In this document: positions 1 through 56,325 of the stretch, piece after piece
How the letters are laid out: the number at the start of each line of letters is the position of its first letter
How positions within the stretch are numbered: position 1 is the stretch's first letter
NCBI GenBank assembly: GCA_021324435.1
Contig: JAJPIZ010000038.1
Coordinates: 126,269 to 190,268 of the forward strand
From: Anaerolineae bacterium
GTDB lineage: Bacteria; Chloroflexota; Anaerolineae; Anaerolineales; Villigracilaceae
Reading direction: 5' to 3'
DNA length: 64,000 nucleotides
The notes under the pieces: model-generated
What the model was told of the DNA's origin: nothing
Seen by the model: only the letters and a program-made list of their open reading frames with translations
The model's database searches: none
Program-made: the position numbers and the translations under genes

Positions 1-1577
1 TGACCAATCCTGGCATTCCCAAGATCGCACACAATGCAAAGTACGATTACATCGTTCTGGCGCGGCATGGACTCAACGTCTCCCCCATCACCTTCGACAC
101 CATGATCGCCGAATTCCTCGTTGACCCCTCTTCGCGCAACCTCGGACTCAAGAATCTAGCCTACGCGCGGCTGGGCGAAGAAATGACGCACATCGAGCAA
201 CTCATCGGCACGGGCAAGCATCAACTCAGCATGGCCGAGATCGCGATCGAATCCGTCGCGGCCTACGCGGCGGCAGATGCCGAAACGACTCTGCGGCTTC
301 TCCCCATCATGCAGGCGGAGGTCGAGCGCGTCCACGGAACAAAACTGATGGATGAAATCGAAATGCCGCTAATCCCCGTGCTGGCCGAAATGGAAATGAC
401 CGGCGTTCTGCTCGACCTGCCCTTCTTCAAAAAATTGAACGTTGAACTCTCCGCACGCATGGCAGAGATCGAAAAACAAGTCTTCGAGGCGGTCGGCAAA
501 CCGTTCAACATCAATTCCACGCAACAACTTTCCGATGTTCTCTTCAACCGCCTGCGCCTCGAACCGCCGGACAAAGGCCGCAAAACCTCCAGCGGACATT
601 ATTCGACCTCCGGCGATATCCTCGACGCGTTGAGCGGCAAGCATCCCGTCGTGGATTGGGTGATCCAGCATCGCGAACTTTCTAAACTCAAATCCACATA
701 CGTCGAGGCCTTGCCCGCCGCAGTGGATTCAAAAACCGGGCGCGTACACACCTCCTACAGCCAAACCGGCGCGGTGACCGGACGTTTATCTTCGTCGAAT
801 CCAAATCTGCAAAACATTCCCATCCGCACCGAAGAAGGCCGCCGCGTACGCGAAGGATTCATCGCCGCCAAAGGAAATGTATTGTTGTCTGTTGATTACT
901 CGCAGATTGAATTGCGCATCGTGGCGCACATGGCAAAAGACGAAGGCATGTTGGCCGCCTTCCGCGCGGGGCAGGACATCCATGCCACGACTGCCGCGGC
1001 GATTTACAACATTCCATTGGACAAAGTCACAAAGGAAATGCGACGTCACGCCAAAGCCATCAACTTCGGTTTGATCTATGGCATGTCCGCGTTCGGCCTG
1101 ACGCGCTCGACCGAACTTACGCTGGCCGAGGCCGAAGACTTTGTGAAGGCATACTTCACGCAATTCCCCGGCATCAAAAAATACCTGGACGGCATCCGCA
1201 AGCAGGCCGCGCAGGATGGATATGTCGAAACGCTTTTGGGACGCCGCCGCTACTTCCCGGCTTTGCAGAGCAAACAAAATGTCGCGGTGAAGAACCGGGA
1301 AGAACGCGAGGCCATCAACGCGCCGATTCAAGGCACCGCGGCGGACATCATGAAGATCGCCATGCTCCGCATCCCCTCCGCGTTGAAGAAAGCCAAACTC
1401 AGCGCGCAAATGTTGTTGCAGGTGCACGATGAACTCGTGCTCGAAGTTCCAAAAGAAGAATTGGAAAAGACCGTCAAAGTGGTCAGGGAGGTTATGGAGT
1501 CCGCTTACCCGTTGGATATTCCCCTCGAAACGGAGGCCCGTTCAGGTCCGAACTGGGGCGAGATGAAAGTCATCTGA
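1..1577 (+). CDS. polA: DNA polymerase I (family A), C-terminal portion; 5' end lies outside the window
   Basis: The frame of ORF 102..1577 stays open back to nt 3 (TNPGIPKIAHNAKYDYIVLARHG). Family A motifs are present: DYSQIELR, RRHAKAINFGLIYG, QVHDEL. Confidence 0.95.
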   Translation, partial: TNPGIPKIAHNAKYDYIVLARHGLNVSPITFDTMIAEFLVDPSSRNLGLKNLAYARLGEEMTHIEQLIGTGKHQLSMAEIAIESVAAYAAADAETTLRLLPIMQAEVERVHGTKLMDEIEMPLIPVLAEMEMTGVLLDLPFFKKLNVELSARMAEIEKQVFEAVGKPFNINSTQQLSDVLFNRLRLEPPDKGRKTSSGHYSTSGDILDALSGKHPVVDWVIQHRELSKLKSTYVEALPAAVDSKTGRVHTSYSQTGAVTGRLSSSNPNLQNIPIRTEEGRRVREGFIAAKGNVLLSVDYSQIELRIVAHMAKDEGMLAAFRAGQDIHATTAAAIYNIPLDKVTKEMRRHAKAINFGLIYGMSAFGLTRSTELTLAEAEDFVKAYFTQFPGIKKYLDGIRKQAAQDGYVETLLGRRRYFPALQSKQNVAVKNREEREAINAPIQGTAADIMKIAMLRIPSALKKAKLSAQMLLQVHDELVLEVPKEELEKTVKVVREVMESAYPLDIPLETEARSGPNWGEMKVI

Positions 1578-1719
1578 TTTTGTCGCCACAGAGATTCACA
1601 GTCCACAGAGATAAAATTTGCGTTATTCGCTCATTTGCGAAATTCACGTTGGACTTTCGTCTCCAATGCAAAATCATTAGAGTGTCACCCAGTGTGGTTT
1701 CCAGCGGTAAAATAGACCC

Positions 1720-4038
1720 ATGCCCGAACGAGACGACGTCTACCAGAAAGCAATGAATGAAGGCCACTCGGCGGCCTGGGATCAGGATTGGAAGAAAGCC
1801 GCCGCCGCGTATCGCAAGGCCCTGCAGGAATTTCCCGATCAGCCCAAAGCCCTCAACAGCCTTGGGCTGGCTCTGTTTCAACTCGGGGAATTCGATGAGT
1901 CGTTGAGAATCTATCAGCGCGTGGCTCAACTCGCGCCGGATGATCCAATCGCTTTTGAAAAGGTGGCGCAAATCTCGGAGCGCATCGGCGATCTGAACGC
2001 GGCCGTTGAGGCCTCCATGAAAGCCGCGGAAACGTTCTTGAATCAACGCGAGGTCGAGAAGGCCATCGAGAACTGGGTGCGCGTCACCACCCTGCATCCC
2101 GATCATGTCATGGCACACTCGCGGCTGGCCATGGTGCATGAAAAACTTAACCATCCTCAACAGGCTGTCACAGAATATCTGGCGATTGCCAGCATCCTTC
2201 AGCGCGGCGGCAAGCCCGATAAAGCCCAGGAACTGGTTGACAAGGCTTTGCAGATCATGCCGCAAAACGCCGAAGCCAAACAAGCGCAATCGCTTTTGAA
2301 AATGGGACAACTGCTCCCGAAACCGGTGAGACCCAAAGGCGGGACCGGCCCGATCAGCATGGCAAAAGTCAAGCAGATGGAAATGACGCAGCCGACGCAG
2401 AAAATCGCGTCGGGGCTGGACCCTGTGGCGGAGGCGCGCCAAAAAGCCCTCACCAAGCTGGCAGAGGTCCTCTTCGATTACACCGATGAAAGTCAGGGCG
2501 CGCAGGAGCGGCGTGGTCTATCGGCCATCGTCAAAGGCACGGGAGCATTGTCGCTTCAACAGGCAGAACAGACCAAAGTGGTTTTGCATCTCGGTCAGGC
2601 CATTGACGCGCAGACCAAAAACCAGGACGCGGTCGCCGCGGAAGAATTGGAGCACGCGCTCGAAGCGGGCTTTAGTCATCCGGCCTTGTATTTCAACCTC
2701 GGTTATCTGCGCGCCAAAAGCGACCGTCTCGAAAGCGCCCTGCGCAATCTCACCAACGCGGTCAAGCACAAAGACTATGCCCTCGGCTCGCGGCTTTTGC
2801 TGGGCGACATCCTTTTCAAAAAGGGACAAATTCAAAACGCGTCGGTGGAATATCTCGAAGCGTTGAAACAAGCCGATGCCAGCACAGTGCCGCCCGAACA
2901 GTCCGACGAGATTCGCCAACTGTATGAGCCGCTGATCGAATCGCAGCAGAATCAAAAGGACGACAACGTCAATCGCCGCCTGTGCGAGAACGTCAGCAAA
3001 TTGCTGATGCGCGCCGACTGGCGCGATCAGGTGCATCGCACGCGCGAGCAGATGCGCAAGTCGCAGGATGGCAACACTCTCACGCCGCTGGCGGAAGTGA
3101 TTCTGCAGGCGCAGAGTTCAACCGTGATCGAGTCGATCAACCGCATTCATCAACTGGCGCGCATGGGAAGCCTGCGCTCCGCCATGGACGAGGCCTACGA
3201 CGCGGTCCAGCAGGCGCCGACCTATTTGCCTCTTCACATCTTGATGGGCGAATTGCTCATCCAGGATGGACGCGTGCCGGATGCGATTGCAAAATTCTCG
3301 GTCGTCGCTCACGCGTATGGCGTGCGCGGCGAAGTGGCGCAGGCCAGCAAATTACTGCGGCGCGTGATCCAGCTCGCGCCCATGGATTTGGGCGCGCGCA
3401 CGCGGCTGATTGATCAACTGGTGGCGCGCGGTCAGGTGGATGAAGCCATCAAGGAATATCTCGAACTGGCCGATCTGTATTACCGTCTCGCCGAACTCGA
3501 TATGGCGCGCAAGACGTACACCACAGCGTTACGGCTTGTCCAGCAGGCCAACGCAGACCGCGCCTGGAACGTCCACATTTTGCAACGCATGGCGGATATT
3601 GACATGCAACGCCTCGACTGGAAACAGGCTCTGCGCGTCTATGAGCAGATCCGCACCCTGCGCCCGGACGATCAGGGCGCGCGCAAACAACTGGTCGAAC
3701 TGTTCATGCGCATGGGCCAAACTCAACAGTTGATCGCGGAAATCGAAGGATACTTCACCTATCTCGACAGCAATGGCAAGTCCGGTGATTCGCTCCCCTT
3801 CCTCGAGGACTTGATCAAAGATCACGAGGACGAATTGGTCTTCAAAAAATTACTGGCCGAGCGCCTCAATCAGTTGGGACGTCAGGAAGAGGCCGTGAGC
3901 CAACTCGACGCGCTGGGCGAGTCGCTTTTGCAGAACGGCAAGAAGAAGGAAGCGGTGGAAGTCATCAATCAGATTCTGCTGATGAATCCGCCCAACGCAG
4001 AAGATTACCGTCAATTGCTTGGGCAGATTGGGAAATAA
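1720..4038 (+). CDS. TPR-repeat protein (772 aa)
   Basis: Many 34-aa TPR-like helix pairs, e.g. AYRKALQEFPDQPKALNSLGLALFQLGEFDESLRIYQRVAQLAPDD. Single long ORF followed by a terminator. Confidence 0.75.
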   Translation: MPERDDVYQKAMNEGHSAAWDQDWKKAAAAYRKALQEFPDQPKALNSLGLALFQLGEFDESLRIYQRVAQLAPDDPIAFEKVAQISERIGDLNAAVEASMKAAETFLNQREVEKAIENWVRVTTLHPDHVMAHSRLAMVHEKLNHPQQAVTEYLAIASILQRGGKPDKAQELVDKALQIMPQNAEAKQAQSLLKMGQLLPKPVRPKGGTGPISMAKVKQMEMTQPTQKIASGLDPVAEARQKALTKLAEVLFDYTDESQGAQERRGLSAIVKGTGALSLQQAEQTKVVLHLGQAIDAQTKNQDAVAAEELEHALEAGFSHPALYFNLGYLRAKSDRLESALRNLTNAVKHKDYALGSRLLLGDILFKKGQIQNASVEYLEALKQADASTVPPEQSDEIRQLYEPLIESQQNQKDDNVNRRLCENVSKLLMRADWRDQVHRTREQMRKSQDGNTLTPLAEVILQAQSSTVIESINRIHQLARMGSLRSAMDEAYDAVQQAPTYLPLHILMGELLIQDGRVPDAIAKFSVVAHAYGVRGEVAQASKLLRRVIQLAPMDLGARTRLIDQLVARGQVDEAIKEYLELADLYYRLAELDMARKTYTTALRLVQQANADRAWNVHILQRMADIDMQRLDWKQALRVYEQIRTLRPDDQGARKQLVELFMRMGQTQQLIAEIEGYFTYLDSNGKSGDSLPFLEDLIKDHEDELVFKKLLAERLNQLGRQEEAVSQLDALGESLLQNGKKKEAVEVINQILLMNPPNAEDYRQLLGQIGK

Positions 4039-4041
4039 TAG

Positions 4042-4076
4042 AAAACTCCTCACGAAAAATTGTGAGGAGTTTTTTT
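4042..4076. terminator. bidirectional rho-independent terminator hairpin
   Basis: AAAACTCCTCAC-gaaaaatt-GTGAGGAGTTTTTTT lies between the TPR gene stop and the 3' end of tRNA-Lys. Confidence 0.7.
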
Positions 4077-4077
4077 G

Positions 4078-4149
4078 TGACCCCGAGGCGATTTGAACGC
4101 CTAACCAATTGATTAAGAGTCAACTGCTCTGCCGTTGAGCTACGGGGCC
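4078..4149 (-). tRNA. tRNA-Lys (anticodon CUU), 72 nt, CCA not encoded
   Basis: Hand-folded cloverleaf on the minus strand: acceptor GGCCCCG/CGGGGTC, D arm GCTC-AACGGCA-GAGC, anticodon stem GTTGA/TCAAT with loop CTCTTAA, T arm AGGCG-TTCAAAT-CGCCT. Confidence 0.9.
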
Positions 4150-4213
4150 ATCCGTTTCGCAGGCGGTTGCGAATTATACCGCAAAGGTTTCGCGTGTCAA
4201 TTGTCAATGCAGG

Positions 4214-4219
4214 TATAAT
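4214..4219 (+). promoter_or_regulatory. candidate -10 box TATAAT, 7 nt upstream of ATG 4227 (possible leaderless mRNA)
   Basis: aggTATAATtgcgttgATG. No SD sequence fits between the box and the ATG. Confidence 0.3.
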
Positions 4220-4226
4220 TGCGTTG

Positions 4227-4697
4227 ATGATCGAATTGAGCCTTCCCAAGCGCGGTGATCTCCATCTCCAGCATTTGGTAATGGATGTGAACGGCACCCT
4301 CGCCGTAGACGGGATTCTAATTGACGGACTCGCCAAGCGCATCGCCGCGATGCGCGACCGATTGACGGTTCACCTGCTTACTGCTGACACACATGGAAAA
4401 CAGGCCGTCATTGATCAGCAACTCAATCTCACCGCCACGCGTCTCAGCGGAGGAAATGAACAGGAACAAAAACGTCAGTTCGTGGAAAATCTCGGCGCAG
4501 AGTCCGTGGTGGCCATCGGCCAGGGCGCGAACGATGCGGGGATGCTCAAAGCCGCCGCGCTGGGAATCTGTGTCATGTCTGCCGAGGGCGCGGCCACCGA
4601 AACGCTCCTCGCCTCGGACCTCGTTGTTCCAAACATCATGACCGCTTTCGACTTGCTCGATAAACCGTTACGTATTGTTGCGAGTCTCCGCAAATGA
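4227..4697 (+). CDS. HAD-superfamily hydrolase, soluble P-type-ATPase-like
   Basis: MDVNGTL (motif I-like), LTADTHG, GQGANDAGML (GDGxND-like). The ORF opens at 4167, but ATG 4227 follows the TATAAT box. Confidence 0.65.
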   Translation: MIELSLPKRGDLHLQHLVMDVNGTLAVDGILIDGLAKRIAAMRDRLTVHLLTADTHGKQAVIDQQLNLTATRLSGGNEQEQKRQFVENLGAESVVAIGQGANDAGMLKAAALGICVMSAEGAATETLLASDLVVPNIMTAFDLLDKPLRIVASLRK

Positions 4698-6013
4698 ACT
4701 TCAACGATTCATCCCTCCCCTCGATTGAACCAGAGACTCCGCGCGAGAACCGTCCGCCGCGCGCCCGCCGTCGAAGGCGCGGCCAGTTGATGGTCCCGCA
4801 GGATGCGGCCGGACGCGCCGCCCTGCTTTCGTCGCTGGCGCGTCGCGCTTATCCGTCGTATGAATTATTCGTCTATGCGGTGCTGTGCGGCGCAATCCTC
4901 GGCCTCGGTTTCATCCTTGATTCGCAAGCCTTATTGTTATTCGGAATTTTATTAGCGCCGCTCCTCACGCCGTGGATCGGATTTTTATTGGCGGCGGTCA
5001 CCGGCTCGGCGCGTTTTCTTTTTGAAACATTGATGGCCGTGCTGGTCAGCGCGGCGCTGGTGCTGGTCATCGGAATGTTATCGGGCTTCGCGGCGCGTCC
5101 GTTTTTGCCGCGCACATTCAATGAAGCCTATGTCCACAGCCATTTGTGGTGGCCGGATTTGGTCATCATCGCGGTCGGCGCGATCATCCTCACCATCTCT
5201 TTTGTGCGCTCCGAAGAAAAACCGTTTCTGCCGAGCGTCGTGCTCGCATATGGATTCTTTATTCCGCTCAGCGCGGCGGGCTTCGGACTCGGAAGCGGCA
5301 TCGCCGATATTTGGCCGAACGGCGTATTGATCTTCCTCGTGCATTTCGCGTGGGCGGGGATGTTCGGTCTGATCACATTGATTGCGATGCGCATCATGCC
5401 GACCAACGCGCAGGGATTTCTGTTGAGCGCGGGCACGACTCTGATCTTTGTGATTCTGCTTTTGAATTTGATGGCGGGCGGGAATGGGAATCAGGCCTCT
5501 GCCTCGGAAGGTGCAGACCCCACTGCGCCTCCCACTTTGACCGTGAACCTGCCGCCCGTTTCGCAAGCCGGGACTCAGCCCCGGCCTTCATCCACGCCCG
5601 TCATCGAGACGGCGACTCCCAACTCATCCCCGTTGAGCACCGAGGGGATTTTGCTCTCTCCCACGGCTGTGCCGCTCACGCTTGAAATCACCCTGCCTCC
5701 CACCGATACGCCAACCGTGACCCTCACCATCGAACCGACTCCGGTCTATGCGCGCATCATGGCAGATAAAGGCGGAGGCGCGTTCCTGCGCAAAGACCCC
5801 AACGGAAAATATCTCGCCACGCTCGATAACTTTTCGATTGTCGAGGTCCTGCCCGACACGCAGGAGGTCAACGGCGTGACGTGGGCGCACGTCATCGCTA
5901 TCAAGAACGGAGTCCGAATGGAAGGCTGGATTCTGCAAATTGTTTTGCAGGTCGCCACGCCCGTTCCAAACTGGCAACCATCGGCAACACCGAGTCTCAC
6001 TCCCACACCATAA
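4694..6013 (+). CDS. polytopic membrane protein (DUF389-like hydrophobic core) with Pro/Thr/Ser linker and C-terminal SH3b-like domain
   Basis: ATGA overlap with the upstream gene. About 6-7 hydrophobic helices, then a PT-rich linker, then ARIMADKGGGAFLRKDPNGKYLATLDNFSIVEVLPD...GWILQ, which resembles bacterial SH3. Confidence 0.6.
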   Translation: MNFNDSSLPSIEPETPRENRPPRARRRRRGQLMVPQDAAGRAALLSSLARRAYPSYELFVYAVLCGAILGLGFILDSQALLLFGILLAPLLTPWIGFLLAAVTGSARFLFETLMAVLVSAALVLVIGMLSGFAARPFLPRTFNEAYVHSHLWWPDLVIIAVGAIILTISFVRSEEKPFLPSVVLAYGFFIPLSAAGFGLGSGIADIWPNGVLIFLVHFAWAGMFGLITLIAMRIMPTNAQGFLLSAGTTLIFVILLLNLMAGGNGNQASASEGADPTAPPTLTVNLPPVSQAGTQPRPSSTPVIETATPNSSPLSTEGILLSPTAVPLTLEITLPPTDTPTVTLTIEPTPVYARIMADKGGGAFLRKDPNGKYLATLDNFSIVEVLPDTQEVNGVTWAHVIAIKNGVRMEGWILQIVLQVATPVPNWQPSATPSLTPTP

Positions 6014-41275: not shown

Positions 41276-41368
41276 AAGTCGCACCAACTCCTTGAAAATT
41301 ATAAACAGGCTTATCTTCCAGGCCTATGGTCAAAAATATCTCAATGGCAATGGGCACTTTTGAGAAAT

Positions 41369-41749
41369 AAAAAGGCACGCTTTAGTCAGCATGTTTTTCA
41401 TGACGGGGAGGGTGGGACTTGAACATCATCCCTCAATGGGGGCCCGCGACCGAAAACAAAAACACGCCCAATCAGCGTGTTTTTTTCTGGCGGGGGAGCG
41501 GGTTTCGAATATCATCCCCTCAATGGGGGGCCGCGACCGAAAACAAAAACACGCCCAATCAGCGTGTTTTTTTCTGGCGGGGAGGGCGGGATTCGAATAT
41601 CATCCCCTCAATGGGGGGCCCGCGACCGAAAACAAAAACACGCCCAATCAGCGTGTTTTTTCTGGCGGGGAGGGCGGGTTTCGAATATCATCCCCTCAAT
41701 GGGGGCCCGCGACCGAAAACAAAAACACGCCCAATCAGCGTGTTTTTTC
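41369..41749 (-). repeat. tandem array (period 87-89 bp; 4 units, the distal one degenerate) of terminator hairpin plus interrupted copy of the tRNA-Ser(GCU) 3' end
   Basis: Hairpins AAAAACACGC-ccaatca-GCGTGTTTTT start at 41369 (degenerate), 41458, 41545, 41634 and 41721. Pseudo-3'-ends TGGCGGGGAGGGCGGGATTCGAA[tatcatcccctcaatgggggg]CCCGCGACCGA start at 41401, 41488, 41575 and 41663. Confidence 0.9.
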
Positions 41750-41841
41750 TGGCGGGGAGGGCGGGATTCGAACCCGCGACCGAGTTTAACCCCGGCACTC
41801 ACTTAGCAGGCGAGCCCATTCAGCCACTCTGGCACCTCCCC
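41750..41841 (-). tRNA. tRNA-Ser (anticodon GCU), 92 nt with encoded CCA
   Basis: Hand fold: acceptor GGGGAGG/CCTCCCC, anticodon stem CTCGC/GTGAG with loop CTGCTAA, long variable arm, T arm GCGGG-TTCGAAT-CCCGC, then G-CCA. Confidence 0.9.
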
Positions 41842-41873
41842 AAGTGCACATATTTTACTCGATGGATGCGGAG

Positions 41874-41958
41874 CGGAGGGAGTGGGATTCGAACCCACGT
41901 TGGTGTGACCCAAACATGTTTTCAAGACATGCGCCTTCAGCCGCTCGGCCATCCCTCC
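41874..41958 (-). tRNA. tRNA-Ser (anticodon UGA), 85 nt, CCA not encoded
   Basis: Hand fold: acceptor GGAGGGA/TCCCTCC, anticodon stem CATGT/ACATG with loop CTTGAAA, long variable arm, T arm GTGGG-TTCGAAT-CCCAC. Confidence 0.9.
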
Positions 41959-42079
41959 AGTCGGAGCGCAGGGGATTTTACCATAAAGAAAACGGGAACT
42001 GGAATTTGCGAATCGGAACTTGGCATGTCCTTTCCAATTCCCGAATATCGCCTCTCGAATATCGAATCCTGACCACTCT

Positions 42080-42088
42080 TGGTATAAT
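42080..42088 (+). promoter_or_regulatory. extended -10 promoter TGGTATAAT, 9 nt upstream of the miaB ATG
   Basis: ctTGGTATAATtcgcttcctATG. No SD sequence. Implies a very short or absent leader. Confidence 0.35.
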
Positions 42089-42097
42089 TCGCTTCCT

Positions 42098-43435
42098 ATG
42101 AAATATCACATCTGGACTGAAGGCTGTCAGATGAACGTGGCCGACTCGCAACGCGTCGGCTCGTCGCTGGAACACCTTGGATACTCCTTTACCGATGCAC
42201 CCGAGGAAGCGGATGTCATTGTTTTAAACACGTGCGTCGTGCGTCAGTCCGCCGAAGACAAGGCCTATGGGCGCTTAAGTTCGTTGCGCCCGTTGAAAGA
42301 AAAGAATCCCAATCTCATCATCAACCTGATGGGTTGCATGGTCGGCGTGCGCGGCGCGGAAAAACTGAAACAAAAACTTCCCTACGTAGATGTCTTCTCG
42401 CCGCCTTCCGATCCCGGCCCGCTGATCTCGCATCTCACGCAAGGCGAAATCCATTCGATGGAAAATGCGGAAACGACCCGCCGCTTCTTAATGATGGACG
42501 AAGAATTGATCCTGCCGCAGGCCGAGCAGGGCAAACTTGTCAGCGCGCATGTGCCCATCGTCTATGGTTGCTCGCACGCTTGCACTTTTTGCATCATACC
42601 TTACAAGCGCGGGGTGGAGCGCAGTCGCCCGGTTGGCGACATTGTCAGCGAAGTCCGTTCGCTTGCCAAACAGGGCGTCAAGGAAATCACGCTCCTTGGC
42701 CAGATCGTGGATCGTTACGGAAAAGATATTCCGGATGGCCCCAACCTCGCCGGTCTTCTGCGCGTCATTCACGAAGTCGAGGGCATTGAGCGCATCCGCT
42801 TCCTGACCTCGCATCCCAACTATTTCAGCGATGATTTGATCGAAGCCATCGCGGAATTGCCGCACGTCATGCCGCACATCGAACTTCCGATCCAAGCGGG
42901 CGACGATGAAGTTTTATCCAATATGAAGCGCGGGTATACACAACAGGATTACCGCGACCTTGTTTCAAAAATCCGTGAGAAAATACCAGACTGTTCCATC
43001 GCCACGGACATCATCGTCGGCTTTCCCGGCGAGACCGAGGACCAGTTCATGCAAACCTACCGCGTCTTGTCGGACCTCCGGCTGGATGTCGCTCATTTGG
43101 CCCGCTACTCCCCTCGAGAAGGGACCGTCGCCACGCGCCGCATGGATGATAACGTGACCGACGAAGAGAAAATGCGCCGCTTCCGCATGCTGGAAGAATT
43201 GCAGGAACAAATCGTGGACGAGATCAATAAAAAATATCTTGGCCAAACAGTTGAAGTGTTGTTCGAGGAAAAGACCAAAGGGCGCTGGCGCGGAAGAACA
43301 CCGACTAACAAACTGGTCTTCGTTGAATCGGATGACGATTTGCGAGGCCAATTGCTCAACGTCAGCGTCACATGGACCGGGCCGTGGTCCATGCAGGCTA
43401 CACTGACAAAACAGCCTGCGCTGATTTCCATCTAA
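42098..43435 (+). CDS. miaB: tRNA-i6A37 methylthiotransferase
   Basis: MKYHIWTEGCQMN (UPF0004 domain), radical-SAM CSHACTFC, and a C-terminal TRAM domain. Confidence 0.9.
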   Translation: MKYHIWTEGCQMNVADSQRVGSSLEHLGYSFTDAPEEADVIVLNTCVVRQSAEDKAYGRLSSLRPLKEKNPNLIINLMGCMVGVRGAEKLKQKLPYVDVFSPPSDPGPLISHLTQGEIHSMENAETTRRFLMMDEELILPQAEQGKLVSAHVPIVYGCSHACTFCIIPYKRGVERSRPVGDIVSEVRSLAKQGVKEITLLGQIVDRYGKDIPDGPNLAGLLRVIHEVEGIERIRFLTSHPNYFSDDLIEAIAELPHVMPHIELPIQAGDDEVLSNMKRGYTQQDYRDLVSKIREKIPDCSIATDIIVGFPGETEDQFMQTYRVLSDLRLDVAHLARYSPREGTVATRRMDDNVTDEEKMRRFRMLEELQEQIVDEINKKYLGQTVEVLFEEKTKGRWRGRTPTNKLVFVESDDDLRGQLLNVSVTWTGPWSMQATLTKQPALISI

Positions 43436-53282: not shown

Positions 53283-54395
53283 TTAACCCCCACTCTTTGT
53301 CGATTTTTCGGTTTTTGTTGGCTTTGATTGTTTCCCACCCGTCTCAGAAGCATATTGTTGTATTTGCTCGGATTTGGCTGGTAATGTGGCCGCAGGTGAA
53401 GGATTTATCCATCCATTTACCTCTGCCACTAAACGAGCAATTCCATAAGGGATTGCTACAATTGGGGTAAATAGAATCCACAGTGTCACGTCAATTAAGA
53501 TGTAGGCGGCCCTCCAAATCACATCAGCCAGAAATGCCAGCACCGGAAGGACGCCAATGATTAGGATGGCTAACAAATAGATCAACACTATAAAACCTGA
53601 GGCCGCAGGCGTGAAAGTCAGGGCTGCCGATAGGGAGTTATTAATGGCCAAGAGACCATATAAAACAAAAGATAAAATCAAATCTGAAGTTGGGCTCGAC
53701 TCCAGATAACCTAGCGATATTAATCTCTGAACTGCAAGGGCAATCATTACGACGACAGCAAACAAAGTCACCGTTACAGCAAATAGCTTGAAAATCTTCT
53801 TCTGGGCGTCAGACAATGTGTCGGTATCAATTAACGCACCCTTACCTGACATCTCAACAAGCATCCATACACCAACCACCGTTGACATTACCGCCCCTCC
53901 TAAAACCGCAAGCTCCAATCTTTGCAATAGAGGGGGCAAATCAGGTGGAATCACACCCATGAGGACAAGGGTGGCCGCAACAACGATTGCATCTGCAATA
54001 AGGAAGAAAACAAAGAAAACCAGAGATATGACATAACCTAATGACCTTAAGGGGTTTTCAGGGTCAAAAACACGGTCTCTTTGAGCGTTAATAAATTTTG
54101 TTAAGGTGCCGTCACGCTTAGAATCGTTATTGGTCTTTGAATCGGGATCGGTCTTGGCCTCACGACGGCTATTTAGCGCCAATTGCTCCAAGAATTCCCT
54201 TGGATAAAGCGGGGGTTCATTTGGTTCCTTATCCTTCTTGAAAATTATTGGCTTGGTAATCAGTTTACCGAGTCGTCCGATGAGATTCTGCCATCGCTTG
54301 ACCCAAACCAAATCTACCACTATCCATATAATCGCGACTATCCCAAAGTATTGCCAATGAAAGAGATCATAGAAGAACTGTAGTAATGTGGACAT
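53283..54395 (-). CDS. hypothetical polytopic membrane protein (370 aa), AT-rich
   Basis: N-terminal TM helix, a Lys/Asp-rich loop, at least 6 further TM helices, and a Lys/Ser/Thr-rich tail. Starts 2 nt after the upstream stop. Confidence 0.6.
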   Translation of the reverse strand: MSTLLQFFYDLFHWQYFGIVAIIWIVVDLVWVKRWQNLIGRLGKLITKPIIFKKDKEPNEPPLYPREFLEQLALNSRREAKTDPDSKTNNDSKRDGTLTKFINAQRDRVFDPENPLRSLGYVISLVFFVFFLIADAIVVAATLVLMGVIPPDLPPLLQRLELAVLGGAVMSTVVGVWMLVEMSGKGALIDTDTLSDAQKKIFKLFAVTVTLFAVVVMIALAVQRLISLGYLESSPTSDLILSFVLYGLLAINNSLSAALTFTPAASGFIVLIYLLAILIIGVLPVLAFLADVIWRAAYILIDVTLWILFTPIVAIPYGIARLVAEVNGWINPSPAATLPAKSEQIQQYASETGGKQSKPTKTEKSTKSGG

Positions 54396-54397
54396 GG

Positions 54398-55474
54398 CTA
54401 CCTCCCGATAGCATCTATCAAATTTACTTCAGCACGCACGCCATTCCAATAGACCACTTTCTCAGCGCCGTATTTTTTGAATTCAGGACTCCAATACTCT
54501 CTTAATTTCATGCAACTTGGCTGATCTATATCCCTGCAATTTGGCAAGATAGCATATATATCTACACCACTTAAGTTGATAAACAGATTGTCAGGGTTGT
54601 ATTCCCTATAGACCTGCAAATCGTCGATAATTATTAAAGTACATTTACTGTAGTTTTTACATTCAGCCTGAAAAACTATTGATGCAAAGCTTAGTCCATA
54701 GTAAACGCCGCCATAATAGAGTTCATCAGTCCTAAACGGCGTTTCTATAACACCTAGACCTTTGTCGTGATTCGTAATCTCTGTAGCAAAGTTCTTCTCT
54801 GCATCATTTATTTCAGCAGTTGCAGTTCCGTTCCACGCAGTGGCTGTTAGTTTAACCACAGTATTCCAATAAGACACCCCACAGGCATATCCCGCCGCAT
54901 TTGCAGTTTCAACAGCCGCCCTTCCAATTGCCTGTTTTGTCTCAGCTTGTTTTGTTGCAACATAGCCAAATCCAGGTGTTAGAGTAACTACGGGAGATGG
55001 CAGAGGCGTTAGAGTCTGTGGAAGCGAAGGTGTATTATAAAGTTGAGGAACCGATATATAGGAATAAAGTCGTGCGACCCTTGCACTATCATAAGAAGAA
55101 TAGCCCAATTGAAAAATTGATACTTGACCACCTGGTTGTATAAGATGAGGAACTATTGTATCAACAAACGAGGGGATGTCTCGAATTTTCTCTTTGGTCT
55201 CCAATTCGAGGTATTGATCGCCTATGGTTCGAGGGCGAGGGTCATATAAAATAACAATTAATTGAGTCGCTCCCCATTCTGAGGGCGTAGACAAACTCAG
55301 GTTAGGGTCACAGGTTGGTGTTGCGGATGGGGAAGACGTCCAAGTTGCGTATCCAGGCGTCTGCTGACTAGGAGTCCCACCACAAGCACCCAATACTAGC
55401 AATATGAATAGAGAAAAGACTAGGATAAACTTTATCCCTGTTGAATTCCAAACCCTTGTCTGTAATGTTTCCAT
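54398..55474 (-). CDS. hypothetical lipoprotein (about 358 aa), AT-rich
   Basis: Lipobox LLVLGAC after ATG 55474. TTG 55522 is an alternative start. AGGAG lies 13 nt upstream. No family recognised. Confidence 0.6.
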   Translation of the reverse strand: METLQTRVWNSTGIKFILVFSLFILLVLGACGGTPSQQTPGYATWTSSPSATPTCDPNLSLSTPSEWGATQLIVILYDPRPRTIGDQYLELETKEKIRDIPSFVDTIVPHLIQPGGQVSIFQLGYSSYDSARVARLYSYISVPQLYNTPSLPQTLTPLPSPVVTLTPGFGYVATKQAETKQAIGRAAVETANAAGYACGVSYWNTVVKLTATAWNGTATAEINDAEKNFATEITNHDKGLGVIETPFRTDELYYGGVYYGLSFASIVFQAECKNYSKCTLIIIDDLQVYREYNPDNLFINLSGVDIYAILPNCRDIDQPSCMKLREYWSPEFKKYGAEKVVYWNGVRAEVNLIDAIGR

Positions 55475-55597
55475 ATGATTGCTCAATCTCCTAGATGAAT
55501 GACCCAATCGAGAGTGATTCAATGGAACCAGAATATATTAATGTTGCCCTAATTTAGCACAAAGTCAAAAAAAAAACAAGTGGTTTTCTTCAACTTT

Positions 55598-55644
55598 TTG
55601 CTTCCTCCTCGCTCTCCACAAAACCGTCAAATACAACGTGGTCT
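55598..55644 (-). repeat. diverged duplicate of the 3' end of the livHM permease gene
   Basis: On the minus strand it translates ...TTLYLTVLWRARRKQ. The real livHM C terminus is ...ALYLTVLWRARRK*. About 32 of 41 nt are identical, and the differences within the shared 12 codons are synonymous. Confidence 0.7.
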
Positions 55645-56325
55645 CTACCCCGCCAGCACGGACTCCACGGTCAAATCCTGATTGGCGTTGATCAGCCGCG
55701 TCGCGTTCTCAACTGCGGTGAGAATCTTTTTTCGGTGCGCCATCAGGAACAGGTCCAGGGCATCGCCGCGGGCGGAGCAAAACAGTTCGCGGGTTTCCAG
55801 TGGAATCCCAAACGACTCCTCGCACCAACCCGTCAGATAACCCGCATTGATGTGGCAAATAGCCTTCTGAGTCTTTTCCCCTTCCGCTAAGAAGCCTTCG
55901 GCCTCAAAAGATTGCTGGTTCGCAAACACCAACAGGAACGTTTCATCTGCCACGGGATGAGTGGGATAGAGCAAATTGACAAACGCCCAGCCGGAAAACG
56001 AAAAATACGTGGGACCGAAGCCGAATTTTTCCAGCGGATCCTTCAGCCCAAAACGGTCGAAGAATTTGCGCGCTTCCGTCCGCCCCACGGCTTTGCCGAA
56101 CGCGTACAAAAGTTGATCCGAGCCATGCTCTCCATAGATTTCAGTCAGCACATTGCGCAGGACTAATGATAGTGAATCTGTACGCGCCAGAATGAAGCGG
56201 TCCTTGCTGACCTCCACGCGGCCGCGCGCCGGCACGCTCTTCAGGGAATCAAAGTATTCCTTGACCGATTCCCTAGCTTTTTCAAAAACGGACGATAATT
56301 CAGGAGGGACTTCTGCGGCTCTCAT
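55645..56325 (-). CDS. V4R (4-vinyl-reductase-like) domain protein
   Basis: SFEAEGFLAEGEKTQKAICHINAGYLTGWCEESFGIPLETRELFCSARGDALDLF matches the V4R C..AG...G...........E..C...G pattern. Confidence 0.65.
   Translation of the reverse strand: MRAAEVPPELSSVFEKARESVKEYFDSLKSVPARGRVEVSKDRFILARTDSLSLVLRNVLTEIYGEHGSDQLLYAFGKAVGRTEARKFFDRFGLKDPLEKFGFGPTYFSFSGWAFVNLLYPTHPVADETFLLVFANQQSFEAEGFLAEGEKTQKAICHINAGYLTGWCEESFGIPLETRELFCSARGDALDLFLMAHRKKILTAVENATRLINANQDLTVESVLAG

Follow-up and report, generated by a model that had tools for sequence, protein, structure and literature searches.

Tandem arrays of hairpin-interrupted tRNA 3′-end copies downstream of tRNA genes in Chloroflexota

The array behind tRNA-Ser(GCU)

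The window – the whole 64-kb stretch of DNA that was analysed – carries a pair of serine tRNA genes on its minus strand, in a neighbourhood that includes MiaB, an SH3-like protein and Hdr-like genes. For the MiaB protein a look-up gave no identical record. The first of the pair is tRNA-Ser(UGA) (41873-41958; ARAGORN, Rfam 61.1 bits), and a scan for downstream copies of its 3′ end found none. The second, tRNA-Ser(GCU), is intact and was placed by ARAGORN and Rfam (55.4 bits) at 41750-41841, the position given by an earlier sequence-only reading of this DNA; its G53 lies at 41773 and its T54 at 41772. The gene is followed on the same strand by a trailer with an intrinsic terminator (41717-41749; hairpin 41721-41747 plus a T tract), and directly after the T tract begins a series of units, U1 to U4, that occupies 41365-41716 of the minus strand, 3′ of the tRNA. 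The claim that these form a tandem array of four 87-89 bp units proved real: Tandem Repeats Finder reports 41386-41772 with a period of 87, 4.4 copies, 92% matches and a score of 649, and a repeat search and a MAFFT alignment give the same units.

A unit reads TCGGTCGCGGG (11 nt, the tRNA sequence up to G53), then the hairpin insert C-CCCC-ATTGA-GGGG-ATGATA, then TTCGAAtCCCGCCCTCCCCGCCA and finally a terminator; the 11 nt copied into all units are those at 41773-41783 of tRNA-Ser(GCU). U1 (87 nt, 41630-41716) consists of an 11-nt arm at 41706-41716, the insert at 41686-41705, a copy of T54 to CCA at 41663-41685 and a terminator hairpin at 41634-41660. The corresponding parts of U2 (89 nt, 41541-41629) are an arm at 41619-41629, an insert with one additional C at 41598-41618, a tRNA 3′ copy at 41575-41597 and a terminator hairpin at 41545-41571; those of U3 (87 nt, 41454-41540) are an arm lacking one G at 41531-41540, an insert at 41510-41530, a tRNA 3′ copy at 41488-41509 and a terminator hairpin at 41458-41484. 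The distal unit, U4 (about 41365-41453, delimited from the sequence and the MAFFT alignment), has its arm at 41443-41453, a variant insert with one G fewer at 41424-41442 (CCCCCATTGAGGGATGATG), a diverged 3′ copy at 41401-41423 (TTCAAGTCCCACCCTCCCCGTCA) and a diverged terminator hairpin at 41376-41393. All four lie on the minus strand. The overall layout is the one described by the sequence-only reading, with two corrections: the insert, counting its leading pyrimidine, is 20 nt (21 in U2) rather than 21, and the left arm, whose length had been given approximately, is exactly 11 nt. The copy farthest from the tRNA is the most diverged in the alignment, as had been noticed.

The 20-mer insert has three exact occurrences in the 64 kb, where 100 shuffles expect none with up to three mismatches allowed, and within the window all its occurrences sit in the array. 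Terminator-like hairpins in series number 5 against 1.4 expected. A promoter scan of the array found no promoter, and all units are positioned behind an intrinsic terminator. Composed of tRNA-derived sequence and terminators, with listed open reading frames that read through the repeats, the array appears non-coding, in agreement with the earlier view. It was also held not to be a CRISPR array, and rightly so: there are no unique spacers, and what separates the inserts is the same tRNA 3′ end and terminator, identical within the array. Beyond U4, the region upstream of the downstream 459-aa gene (CCATTGAGATATTTTTGACC ... TATAAT; 41298-41364, minus strand) looks insert-like by eye and is not a unit. 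A fifth, degenerate unit at CCATTGAGATATTTTTGACC is ruled out because the -TTTTGACC- core recurs at the same position 5′ of the downstream gene in relatives, including those that lack units.

Unit number, which the sequence-only reading proposed to compare, differs between two assemblies of the same species: the second, with flanks 99.7-99.9% identical, has a sole unit, U4, against the four here. It follows that U1-U3 either are polymorphic in number or were collapsed in that second, short-read assembly. This difference is what speaks for a spurious expansion of the repeat during assembly of the window, an explanation that we find scarcely credible: U1-U3 differ mutually at several positions in the alignment, short-read k-mer assemblies tend to collapse rather than expand such repeats, and multi-unit arrays are present in dozens of independent assemblies. 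These include locus L037, with seven units, and locus L057, for both of which the contig names (tig... in L037) suggest long-read assembly. Long arrays are real elsewhere.

Distribution, hairpin and boundaries of the units

An exact-pattern scan located the insert at 59 loci, spread over 48 species genomes that all belong to the Chloroflexota, one of them a Herpetosiphon; chance matches were estimated at well under one. It follows at least 14 tRNA anticodon types from Ser, Glu, Gly, Lys, Arg, Met, Asp and Val genes, lying no more than a few tens of nucleotides downstream of tRNA-Ser(GGA, GCU, CGA), tRNA-Arg(UCG, CCU), tRNA-Glu(UUC, CUC), tRNA-Gly(UCC, GCC), tRNA-Met, tRNA-Asp, tRNA-Lys and tRNA-Val. 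One locus (L019) is, to judge from its sequence, probably a tmRNA 3′ end, in which case a tmRNA gene also bears the insert. The loop and tail sequences are conserved over loci annotated to two classes, Anaerolineae and Chloroflexia, a conservation that is inflated because the 59 loci were ascertained through an exact match to the insert. Over the loci units range from 64 to 111 bp and hold, besides tRNA parts and insert, nothing but a terminator. It is often the distal units that have diverged or decayed most, as is the case in the window, and some units inside arrays are decayed or truncated. At the locus syntenic with that of the window the distribution is patchy: units are missing from four related species, another has just one, and a further species has repeats of another type. 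In metagenomes the insert is followed by T in all but four hits. A scan for the insert followed by a non-T base returned only these four, three of them tRNA-linked and one in random AT-rich coding sequence, and on this basis a master copy of the insert in another context was ruled out.

The main insert comprises a 5-bp stem (Y-CCCC/GGGG-A), a loop of ATTGA and a tail of TGATA; at least one sister family exists (family K, TCCTC-TAC-GAGGA-CTTCG). The insertion point is usually G53/T54, a helix-loop junction, where the borders read ...GCGGG/Y-CCCC and ...GATGATA/TTCGAA. At L066 the insert sits instead in the variable loop of a tRNA-Val, and the units there hold a second insert that is absent from the tRNA. 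The four core pairs are unbroken in 63 of 63 distinct sequences. G:U-type pairs are tolerated, a recurrent change of G52 to C gives the stem an extra C:G pair, and in two lineages – one of which (L069) was found independently of the motif – both sides of CCCC/GGGG have changed to give CCTC/GAGG. Compensatory changes in the hairpin can arise mechanically, by template switching in a quasi-palindrome, without selection. Arrays end precisely at insert borders in L026, L032, L053 and L018, and additional hairpin-plus-tail inserts are nested within pseudo-3′ ends; the insert behaves as a discrete entity. It also contains GGATG, a motif considered in connection with type IIS restriction.

On its left side the unit obeys a strict rule. 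In 32 non-redundant loci the arm is exactly 11 nt: from −1 to −11 it matches the tRNA with an identity of 0.81-1.00, the exceptions being two hot spots, tRNA positions 50 (0.62) and 52 (0.44), and between −12 and −14 the identity falls to 0.03-0.16. In 32 loci an exact 11-nt direct repeat (A and A′) flanks the copy that runs from T54 to the trailer. The rule holds for the variable-loop insertion of L066 and for a different insert located after T55 at a locus found without the motif (L003); beside a tRNA-Val, a hairpin insert unlike the main one conforms to the 11-nt length. In 56% of loci the copied 5′ strand of the T-stem carries a mutation at position 52, a change that breaks the stem, and the T-stem of the copies is usually broken; while the arm decays, the tRNA-identical 3′ segment keeps an identity of 0.9-1.0. 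Many units copy tRNAs that lack an encoded CCA.

The right boundary concerns the trailer. Units start 0-15 nt past the terminator stem in 31 of 34 hairpin-bearing trailers (median 5 over all 34), a boundary that usually coincides with the last bases of the terminator's T tract, the point at which transcripts would stop; it could instead reflect selection for a complete terminator. L005, L045 and L026 extend 13-28 nt beyond the T tract, and the terminator-less tRNAs (units after tRNA-Arg, tRNA-Met and tRNA-Gly) have trailers of 7-13 nt. A long trailer at L007 was dismissed as an exception, being the result of a later insertion of ~170 nt that is bordered by an 8-bp duplication. The terminator after the tRNA is at least 80% identical to that after the last unit in 16 of 48 loci, and the two are unrelated in about 20 of the 48. 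L032 has a mixture of terminators, among them one similar to that of another species (L027). Some of the loci with unrelated terminators are arrays that end in a truncated unit.

A hairpin-type insert is found in nearly all downstream copies of tRNA 3′ ends among 88 tRNA genes; four copies that the automatic pattern missed (L003, L008, L022, L062) carried a variant or a different insert on inspection.

Candidate mechanisms

In Rfam 15, at gathering and at permissive thresholds, the tRNAs alone passed; there was no family for the array, for which the best sub-threshold hit reached 21 bits against a cut-off of 40. A full-text literature search that included the motif itself found nothing relevant, and the earlier remark of knowing no described equivalent is borne out in both respects. 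Two insert patterns gave zero matches in 2.9 million viral contigs, where the sequence-only reading had proposed to look for an element carrying the insert, and matches in phage records arose only through tRNA-Ser similarity. A Pfam scan took in 270 ORFs within about 3.5 kb of the arrays at the 59 loci, the 25 most frequent families being listed per batch; among these listed families no mobility family was enriched, and neither a Cas nor a reverse transcriptase family was present. No reverse transcriptase, HUH nuclease or recombinase was linked to the arrays among genes within about 3.5 kb, and integrases occurred at only one of the 59 loci (L034) among the ORFs tested over that distance. Searches by tblastn with the L034 integrases and the serine recombinase of L050 matched their own loci alone.

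What the analysis shows is the anatomy of the units, their two boundary rules, their breadth over tRNA types and genomes and the lack of neighbouring mobility genes. On the evidence of sequence, tail copies after at least 14 kinds of tRNA point to a putative process, hitherto undescribed, that acts on tRNA genes. The best reading is of a process at the level of DNA, and not of a minihelix RNA or a classical att scar: one that is specific to a single phylum, in which a hairpin plugs the 3′ part of a tRNA or tmRNA gene and an intact end is rebuilt upstream. We offer this tentatively, with a confidence somewhat below even. A small hairpin element would interrupt the gene at a helix-loop junction; the intact 3′ end and the trailer would be rebuilt immediately upstream, so that the gene would remain functional, and the plugged old end would be pushed downstream. 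The resulting structure would be tRNA(...A/B)-C-A′-I-B-C, where A and A′ are the exact 11-bp direct repeat, I is the insert, B runs from T54 to the 3′ end and C is the trailer, stopping at the end of the terminator T tract. In formal terms, the 3′ part of the pre-tRNA would have been copied to a site just upstream of the hairpin, with an 11-bp duplication on its flanks.

We infer an order of events, RNA as a template, a kind of enzyme and its provision in trans. A hairpin-recognising enzyme acting in trans may make a break next to the hairpin that is staggered by 11 nt; the gap may be healed by copying from T54 to the transcript end, using either the pre-tRNA transcript (target-primed reverse transcription) or a sister DNA copy as template; and unequal recombination between units may then expand and contract the array and homogenise B and C. 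As for the units, they are probably either selfish or neutral, and would be harmless because of their terminators. A more particular version – an undescribed, hairpin-guided system of Chloroflexota in which the 20-nt hairpin would mark the gene, an enzyme would cut at a distance of exactly 11 nt from it and the 3′ end would be rebuilt from the transcript, or in a variant one that serves as guide for a tRNA-targeting enzyme – we regard as doubtful; in that variant the hairpin and the tRNA-identical segment may together guide a tRNA-targeting, nucleic-acid-guided enzyme. Intermediates of the DNA-level process were not seen: the 88 tRNA genes included no insert-free copy with an 11-nt arm, and removal of the insert in silico made a full tRNA of 0 of 116 units, so none is a plugged full-length gene. 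A simple local copy does not predict the unrelated terminators, beyond those explained by truncated units; it would have to be supplemented by subsequent exchange through homologous recombination, or by import of a cassette. It counts against our best explanation that the movement of the 20-nt sequence between loci and genomes is left without account.

Cassettes are the substance of a competing explanation, which we judge unlikely. Here a gene-less unit – T54 to the 3′ end, terminator, 11-nt arm and hairpin – would be inserted at the T-loop by a site-specific recombinase acting in trans, and the newest cassette would adjoin the tRNA and supply its 3′ end, analogous to integron cassettes at attI and Xer elements at dif. 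The 3′ ends of tRNA and tmRNA genes are classical integration sites; a functional gene opens the array, in which divergence is greatest in the distal unit; and arrays terminating exactly at hairpin borders, the unrelated terminators at the two ends of about 20 of 48 loci, the mixture at L032 and an 11+7+11 bp layout around the T-loop that may resemble the core sites of tyrosine recombinases are all in accord with such insertion. Yet the hairpin parts the supposed left arm from the crossover region, the unit sequence left of the junction (GGGGATGATA) is unlike that of the tRNA, no GTTRRRY-type core is evident by eye, and no recombinase gene is enriched near the arrays. Moreover, arm and 3′ end are locus-specific whereas the insert is common to all tRNA types, so a cassette of this kind cannot move between tRNA types; and the second insert in the units of L066 is missing from the tRNA, so the last event there was not the insertion of such a cassette. 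Stacked att scars, which the sequence-only reading had considered, would be attR remnants of classical tRNA-integrating islands or prophages after integration and decay. Integrating elements are known to duplicate tRNA 3′ ends, and L034 and L050 have integrase or serine-recombinase genes beside tRNA fragments, but we consider this origin very unlikely: the island of L034 has a long, uninterrupted tRNA fragment as its own att repeat, with the units lying beyond it; no integrase was found at the other 58 loci among the ORFs tested within about 3.5 kb; the insert, the same 20 nt beside at least 14 tRNA types, is missing from the viral contigs; and a constant unit architecture is not expected from random decay.

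That the units function as RNA, through read-through or independently made transcripts – as decoys, guides or spare parts, with the hairpin as a protein handle and the 23-nt tRNA 3′ sequence as a specificity segment, in a manner that resembles a crRNA or a tRNA-targeting homing guide – is distinctly unlikely. The hairpin core is conserved, with its two double-sided changes and tolerated G:U-type pairs, as are loop and tail in both classes; the tRNA-identical segment has outlasted the arm; and the layout of a handle plus a target-identical segment resembles that of known guide RNAs. Set against this, a promoter is absent and an intrinsic terminator stands ahead of every unit, presence is patchy among close relatives, units are decayed and truncated within arrays, no effector gene is associated with the arrays among the listed families within ~3.5 kb, and unrelated DNA adjoins the sharp left boundary, which marks it as a DNA event. 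Folding of the unit RNAs gave no structure beyond the terminators (z-scores −1.5 to +0.9 except with the terminator included), and the fold prediction that the sequence-only reading had called for, of a T-arm/acceptor minihelix, yielded none that stands out from shuffled sequence. Its suggestion of expressed minihelix RNAs with CCA ends does not fit as it stands, given the missing promoter, the copies of CCA-less tRNAs and the T-stem broken at position 52 (56%), and nor does its alternative of a selected multi-terminator insulator, given the tRNA-Arg, tRNA-Met and tRNA-Gly units without a terminator hairpin and the close relatives that have the same locus without units. Ordinary tandem duplication, through slippage or unequal crossing-over at a highly transcribed locus with the insert as chance filler spread by descent and gene conversion, would accommodate the differing copy number of the two assemblies, the homogenisation of repeats within a genome and the 16 of 48 loci with first and last terminators at least 80% identical. 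It leaves unexplained why one 20-mer should recur in an identical position next to at least 14 tRNA types across 48 genomes, why the arm should be exactly 11 nt long in 32 loci and in the second insert family, and why insert-free duplicates are absent; it is extremely unlikely and largely refuted already. Group II introns (a 5′ GUGYG-like arm and 11-12 nt of exon binding), IS91/Helitron elements, relaxase nic sites, type IIS restriction, Argonaute slicing, primase primer length and CAST/TnpB guides were set aside by reasoning only: one feature of each fits and others fail, for example for want of a conserved cut-site sequence, dispersed copies or a linked gene.

Comparison with known systems

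Tandem arrays of tRNA and tmRNA islands are known, for example the ssrA islands of Dehalococcoides and the tycheposons. Like the units, their att repeats duplicate the tRNA 3′ end behind an intact gene, can stack in tandem, decay as they grow older and also occur at tmRNA; in contrast, the copies described here are interrupted by a conserved hairpin and start exactly 11 nt before it, no island or integrase lies between copies, and one insert serves at least 14 tRNA types. The units are thus unlike an attR/attL scar, in which an uninterrupted tRNA 3′ direct repeat and an integrase-bearing element, or its remnants, are expected. Integron cassettes, and attC clusters without an integrase, are likewise small promoterless units stacked beside a fixed site, each ended by a hairpin-forming site on which an enzyme would act in trans. 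Unlike these, our units have no RYYYAAC/GTTRRRY core (as judged by eye) and no ORF, their content is copied from the adjacent gene, and the hairpin is conserved in sequence and not in structure alone. CTX-phage-type elements at Xer/dif sites also keep a functional site at one end of a growing tandem array, with non-functional hybrid sites between units and single-strand hairpins; here the site is a tRNA gene and not dif, the units are gene-less and shorter than 100 bp, and there is no evidence of Xer.

REP and BIME sequences with their RAYTs, and the ends of IS200/IS605 elements (Y1 HUH enzymes, cuts at a fixed distance), offer further parallels: a conserved tail beside a short GC hairpin, a boundary whose distance from the foot of the hairpin is fixed, and a position close to terminators. 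The present insert, however, is not dispersed and lies only inside tRNA 3′ copies, the 11 nt to the boundary are not conserved in sequence, and no Y1 transposase gene is found near the arrays. MITEs and PATEs differ in that only the 20-nt insert is common to our loci, while the arm, 3′ end and trailer agree with the tRNA locus next to them. Target-primed retrocopies (LINE/SINE) resemble the units in a copied segment that, in the units, may stop at the transcript end, a short flanking direct repeat of fixed length and a transcript-end junction without homology, and in the retrohoming of diversity-generating retroelements a DNA hairpin marks the target; but no reverse transcriptase is linked to the arrays, there is an extra hairpin at one junction, and the copy restores the source gene instead of landing elsewhere. 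To our knowledge, target-primed retrocopying has never been described for bacterial tRNA genes.

Mobile DNA has no better-known landing sites than tRNA genes, and the pattern – a 20-nt hairpin that is conserved, a ruler of exactly 11 nt and a putative transcript-end boundary, at many tRNA types in one phylum – fits no known way of using them. Should a dedicated enzyme set the ruler, it would represent a new hairpin-directed DNA-processing activity; should the rebuilt 3′ end be copied from pre-tRNA, it would be a rare instance in bacteria of RNA-templated gene repair or retro-duplication, one that repairs an essential gene after invasion. Neither tRNA finders nor Rfam detect the arrays, which also tend to collapse in short-read assemblies; they are therefore probably under-reported. 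They do present a signature that could be sought in any phylum: a tRNA gene and, downstream of it, an 11-nt arm and a short hairpin ahead of a copy of the gene's last 20 nt.

The array behind tRNA-Ser(GCU)

On the minus strand of the window tRNA-Ser(UGA) (41873-41958) lies upstream of tRNA-Ser(GCU) (41750-41841), and the second gene of this pair is followed by an array (41365-41716) to which Tandem Repeats Finder assigns a period of 87, 4.4 copies and 92% matches (score 649); the same units were recovered by an independent repeat search and MAFFT alignment. Each unit comprises, on the minus strand, 11 nt of the tRNA ending with G53 (TCGGTCGCGGG), a 20-nt insert (C-CCCC-ATTGA-GGGG-ATGATA), the tRNA from T54 to CCA (TTCGAAtCCCGCCCTCCCCGCCA), and a terminator of A-tract, hairpin and T-tract, the same as that after the real tRNA-Ser(GCU). 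The sequence-only reading had described this anatomy correctly save for small corrections, as sequence, repeat finder and alignment agree: its overall layout stands, with dimensions refined to an arm of 11 nt and an insert of 20-21 nt. Its distal copy is indeed, by alignment, the most diverged (U4), and carries a variant insert.

Three exact copies of the insert occur in the 64-kb window, none being expected in shuffles. Terminator-like sites run in series across the array (5 versus 1.4 expected), and a promoter scan found no promoter-like site within it. A fifth unit was considered and rejected. ORFs of 109-217 aa listed on the plus strand across the array (41391-41806) we take to be artefacts and not genes, because the sequence they cross consists of tRNA-derived repeats and terminators.

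The genes flanking the array are housekeeping in nature – MiaB, an SH3-like 459-aa protein, Hdr-like proteins and aconitase – and the nearest MiaB relatives are from Anaerolineales close to 'Candidatus Villigracilis'. Between miaB and the tRNA-Ser pair (42039-42067) are short direct repeats (TCCCGAATATCG twice, the heptamer CGAATAT 3.7 times) that may mark a regulatory or promoter region; similar sequence is found in a relative, L071. Elsewhere (54000-56000) GC falls to 0.44, versus about 0.55 in the rest of the window.

Variation among relatives and spread across Chloroflexota

The same species is represented by another assembly, L068, whose 459-aa protein is identical and whose flanks match those of the window at 99.7-99.9% identity; since it carries U4 only, U1-U3 are either polymorphic or have been collapsed by its k-mer assembly. 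Homologues of the 459-aa protein gave access, independently of the motif, to the syntenic locus in relatives. Units were absent there from four related species (L071, L073, L075, L076), a single unit with a hairpin of the compensated type was present in L069, and L074 had three repeats of another type, without the insert, as against the four units of the window. Given such patchy presence, units are gained or lost over short evolutionary timescales. The L074 repeats (about 1880-2280, each ~130 nt, after tRNA-Ser(GCU)) have GCTGCGCTTGCGT in place of the T-stem 3' strand and a CCTCC...GAGGG hairpin upstream of the arm. miaB faces the tRNA-Ser pair in the window and in the four species lacking units; relatives L001-L004 have an FAA-hydrolase gene before it, L003 and L004 also tRNA-Val. 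Comparison of window 41958-42098 with L001 and L003 places a synteny break at the tRNA genes.

Scanning one genome per species (596 Gb) with the pattern CCCCATTGAGGG(N0-1)ATGATRTTCRA returned 59 loci in 48 genomes, some with several loci and all Chloroflexota (Anaerolineales, Villigracilaceae, Brevefilum and Herpetosiphon among others); we estimate chance matches at well under one. The tRNA genes found upstream, at most a few tens of nt from the motif, are those for Ser(GGA, GCU, CGA), Arg(UCG, CCU), Glu(UUC, CUC), Met, Asp, Lys(UUU) and Gly(UCC, GCC); a metagenome scan added tRNA-Val(UAC), and one locus (L019) reads as a probable tmRNA 3' end. At every locus the arm and 3' segment match the adjoining tRNA, the insert alone being common to different loci. 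Arrays hold 1-7 units, the maximum occurring on a contig (L037) whose tig... name suggests a long-read assembly.

Boundary rules and constraints on the hairpin

The left boundary was compared across 32 non-redundant loci with an intact tRNA and first unit. Over the 11 positions preceding the insert, unit and tRNA agree at 0.81-1.00 identity, except for hot spots at tRNA positions 50 (0.62) and 52 (0.44); at -12 to -14 identity drops to 0.03-0.16. The arm of the tRNA-Val units of L066, whose insert is in the variable loop, likewise measures 11 nt (TTACACCGAAG). L003, retrieved via MiaB and not via the motif, has on its minus strand (1-130) tRNA-Val and then a pseudo-3'-end unit in which a different insert, TCCTC-TAC-GAGGA-CTTCG (TCCTCTACGAGGACTTCG), follows T55; the 11 nt to its left are GATCAGGGGTT. 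The 11-nt rule goes with the hairpin and not with the T-loop. The geometry in common is 11 local nt, followed by a stem of 5 bp, a loop of 3-5 nt and a tail of 5 nt, before the tRNA resumes. A second L003 unit begins at the contig end.

At the right boundary, a terminator hairpin is present in 34 of 40 trailers, and for 31 of those the following unit begins 0-15 nt past the stem (median 5 over all 34), at the end of the T-tract; where a tRNA has no terminator, its trailer is 7-13 nt long. The long trailer between tRNA-Ser(GGA) and its unit in L007 was rejected as an exception: it contains a later, MITE-like insertion of ~170 nt (about 560-740, minus strand) flanked by an 8-bp duplication, TTTATTTG.

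Among 88 tRNA genes nearly every downstream 3'-end copy holds a hairpin-type insert, and the four copies missed by the automatic pattern (in L003, L008, L022 and L062) proved on inspection to have a variant or different one. The four core pairs are intact in 63/63 distinct sequences. CCCC/GGGG has changed on both sides to CCTC/GAGG in two lineages, one of them (L069) found without the motif, and a recurrent G52-to-C change gives the hairpin a C:G pair while breaking the T-stem of the copy. Removing the insert in silico restored a full tRNA in none of 116 units. Array ends coincide exactly with insert borders at four loci (L026, L032, L053, L018), and only four metagenome matches have an insert not followed by T, three of them tRNA-linked. 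Pseudo-3' ends also gather further hairpin-plus-tail inserts (L024/L042, L030/L050, L035, L065/L066, L008; for example CCCCTGCGGGGGAGGCTGCGCAC, CCCAYAGGGTGCAAGCWAG and CGCGCAGCACCCTGCAAAGGGT), several of which have a GCTGCGC tail in either orientation.

Origin of the units

We read these features as DNA-level events: units meet unrelated DNA at a sharp left junction, are patchily distributed, decay and lack any promoter. Formally the structure is tRNA(...A|B)-C-A'-I-B-C (A/A', the 11-bp repeat; I, the insert; B, T54 to the 3' end; C, the trailer): the gene is copied from T54 to the presumed transcript end, with an 11-bp direct repeat on either side of the copy, just upstream of a hairpin plug. 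From this structure we tentatively favour the following sequence. A small hairpin element would invade the 3' part of the gene; a putative hairpin-directed enzyme would break the DNA with an 11-nt stagger; and the intact 3' end would be remade by copying as far as the transcript end, the template being either the pre-tRNA, via target-primed reverse transcription, or a sister DNA copy. Unequal recombination could then alter copy number and homogenise the 3' segment and trailer.

The main rival, that the units are gene-less integrative cassettes put in at the T-loop by a trans-acting recombinase, is in our view unlikely. At 16 of 48 loci the terminators behind the tRNA and behind the last unit share 80% identity or more; at about 20 their similarity is at background level, some of these being arrays with a truncated last unit; cassettes explain unrelated terminators better than rebuilding of the 3' end does, and explain the common insert and the hairpin position worse. 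Among the Pfam families listed for 270 ORFs lying up to about 3.5 kb from arrays no mobility gene is enriched, nor did tblastn with the recombinases seen nearby reveal enrichment of such genes. That the units yield a functional RNA is less probable still, their terminators, absent promoter and decay all speaking against it.

Nor do the units match classical att scars, integron cassettes, REP elements, MITEs, CRISPR arrays or known RNA families, a defining feature being missing in each comparison. The earlier exclusion of CRISPR thus holds, and the suggestion of stacked att scars does not as it was put. An island in L034 (4400-7980; two tyrosine-integrase genes and tRNA-Phe), bordered on one side by an intact tRNA-Ser(GGA) and on the other by a long tRNA-Ser copy truncated at its 5' end, has as its att repeat a long uninterrupted tRNA fragment with the look of a true scar, and three units sit past it. 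We found no larger element containing the insert, and the viromes, where a search for such an element had been suggested, gave zero matches among viral contigs in both pattern scans. Searches that included the motif sequence itself found no Rfam family, annotated record or paper, in keeping with the initial impression that no equivalent had been described. To our knowledge no counterpart has been described for the combination seen here at many tRNA types within one phylum, namely a plug that is conserved, a ruler of exactly 11 nt and a boundary at the presumed transcript end.

In L050, with no intact tRNA within 8 kb, a large serine recombinase split into two ORFs (3277-4894) lies directly against the 3' fragment of a tRNA-Glu, after which comes a unit. 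L056 has, between its tRNA-Ser(CGA) and a truncated unit, genes for an IS66-family transposase and a PIN-domain protein (483-3011).
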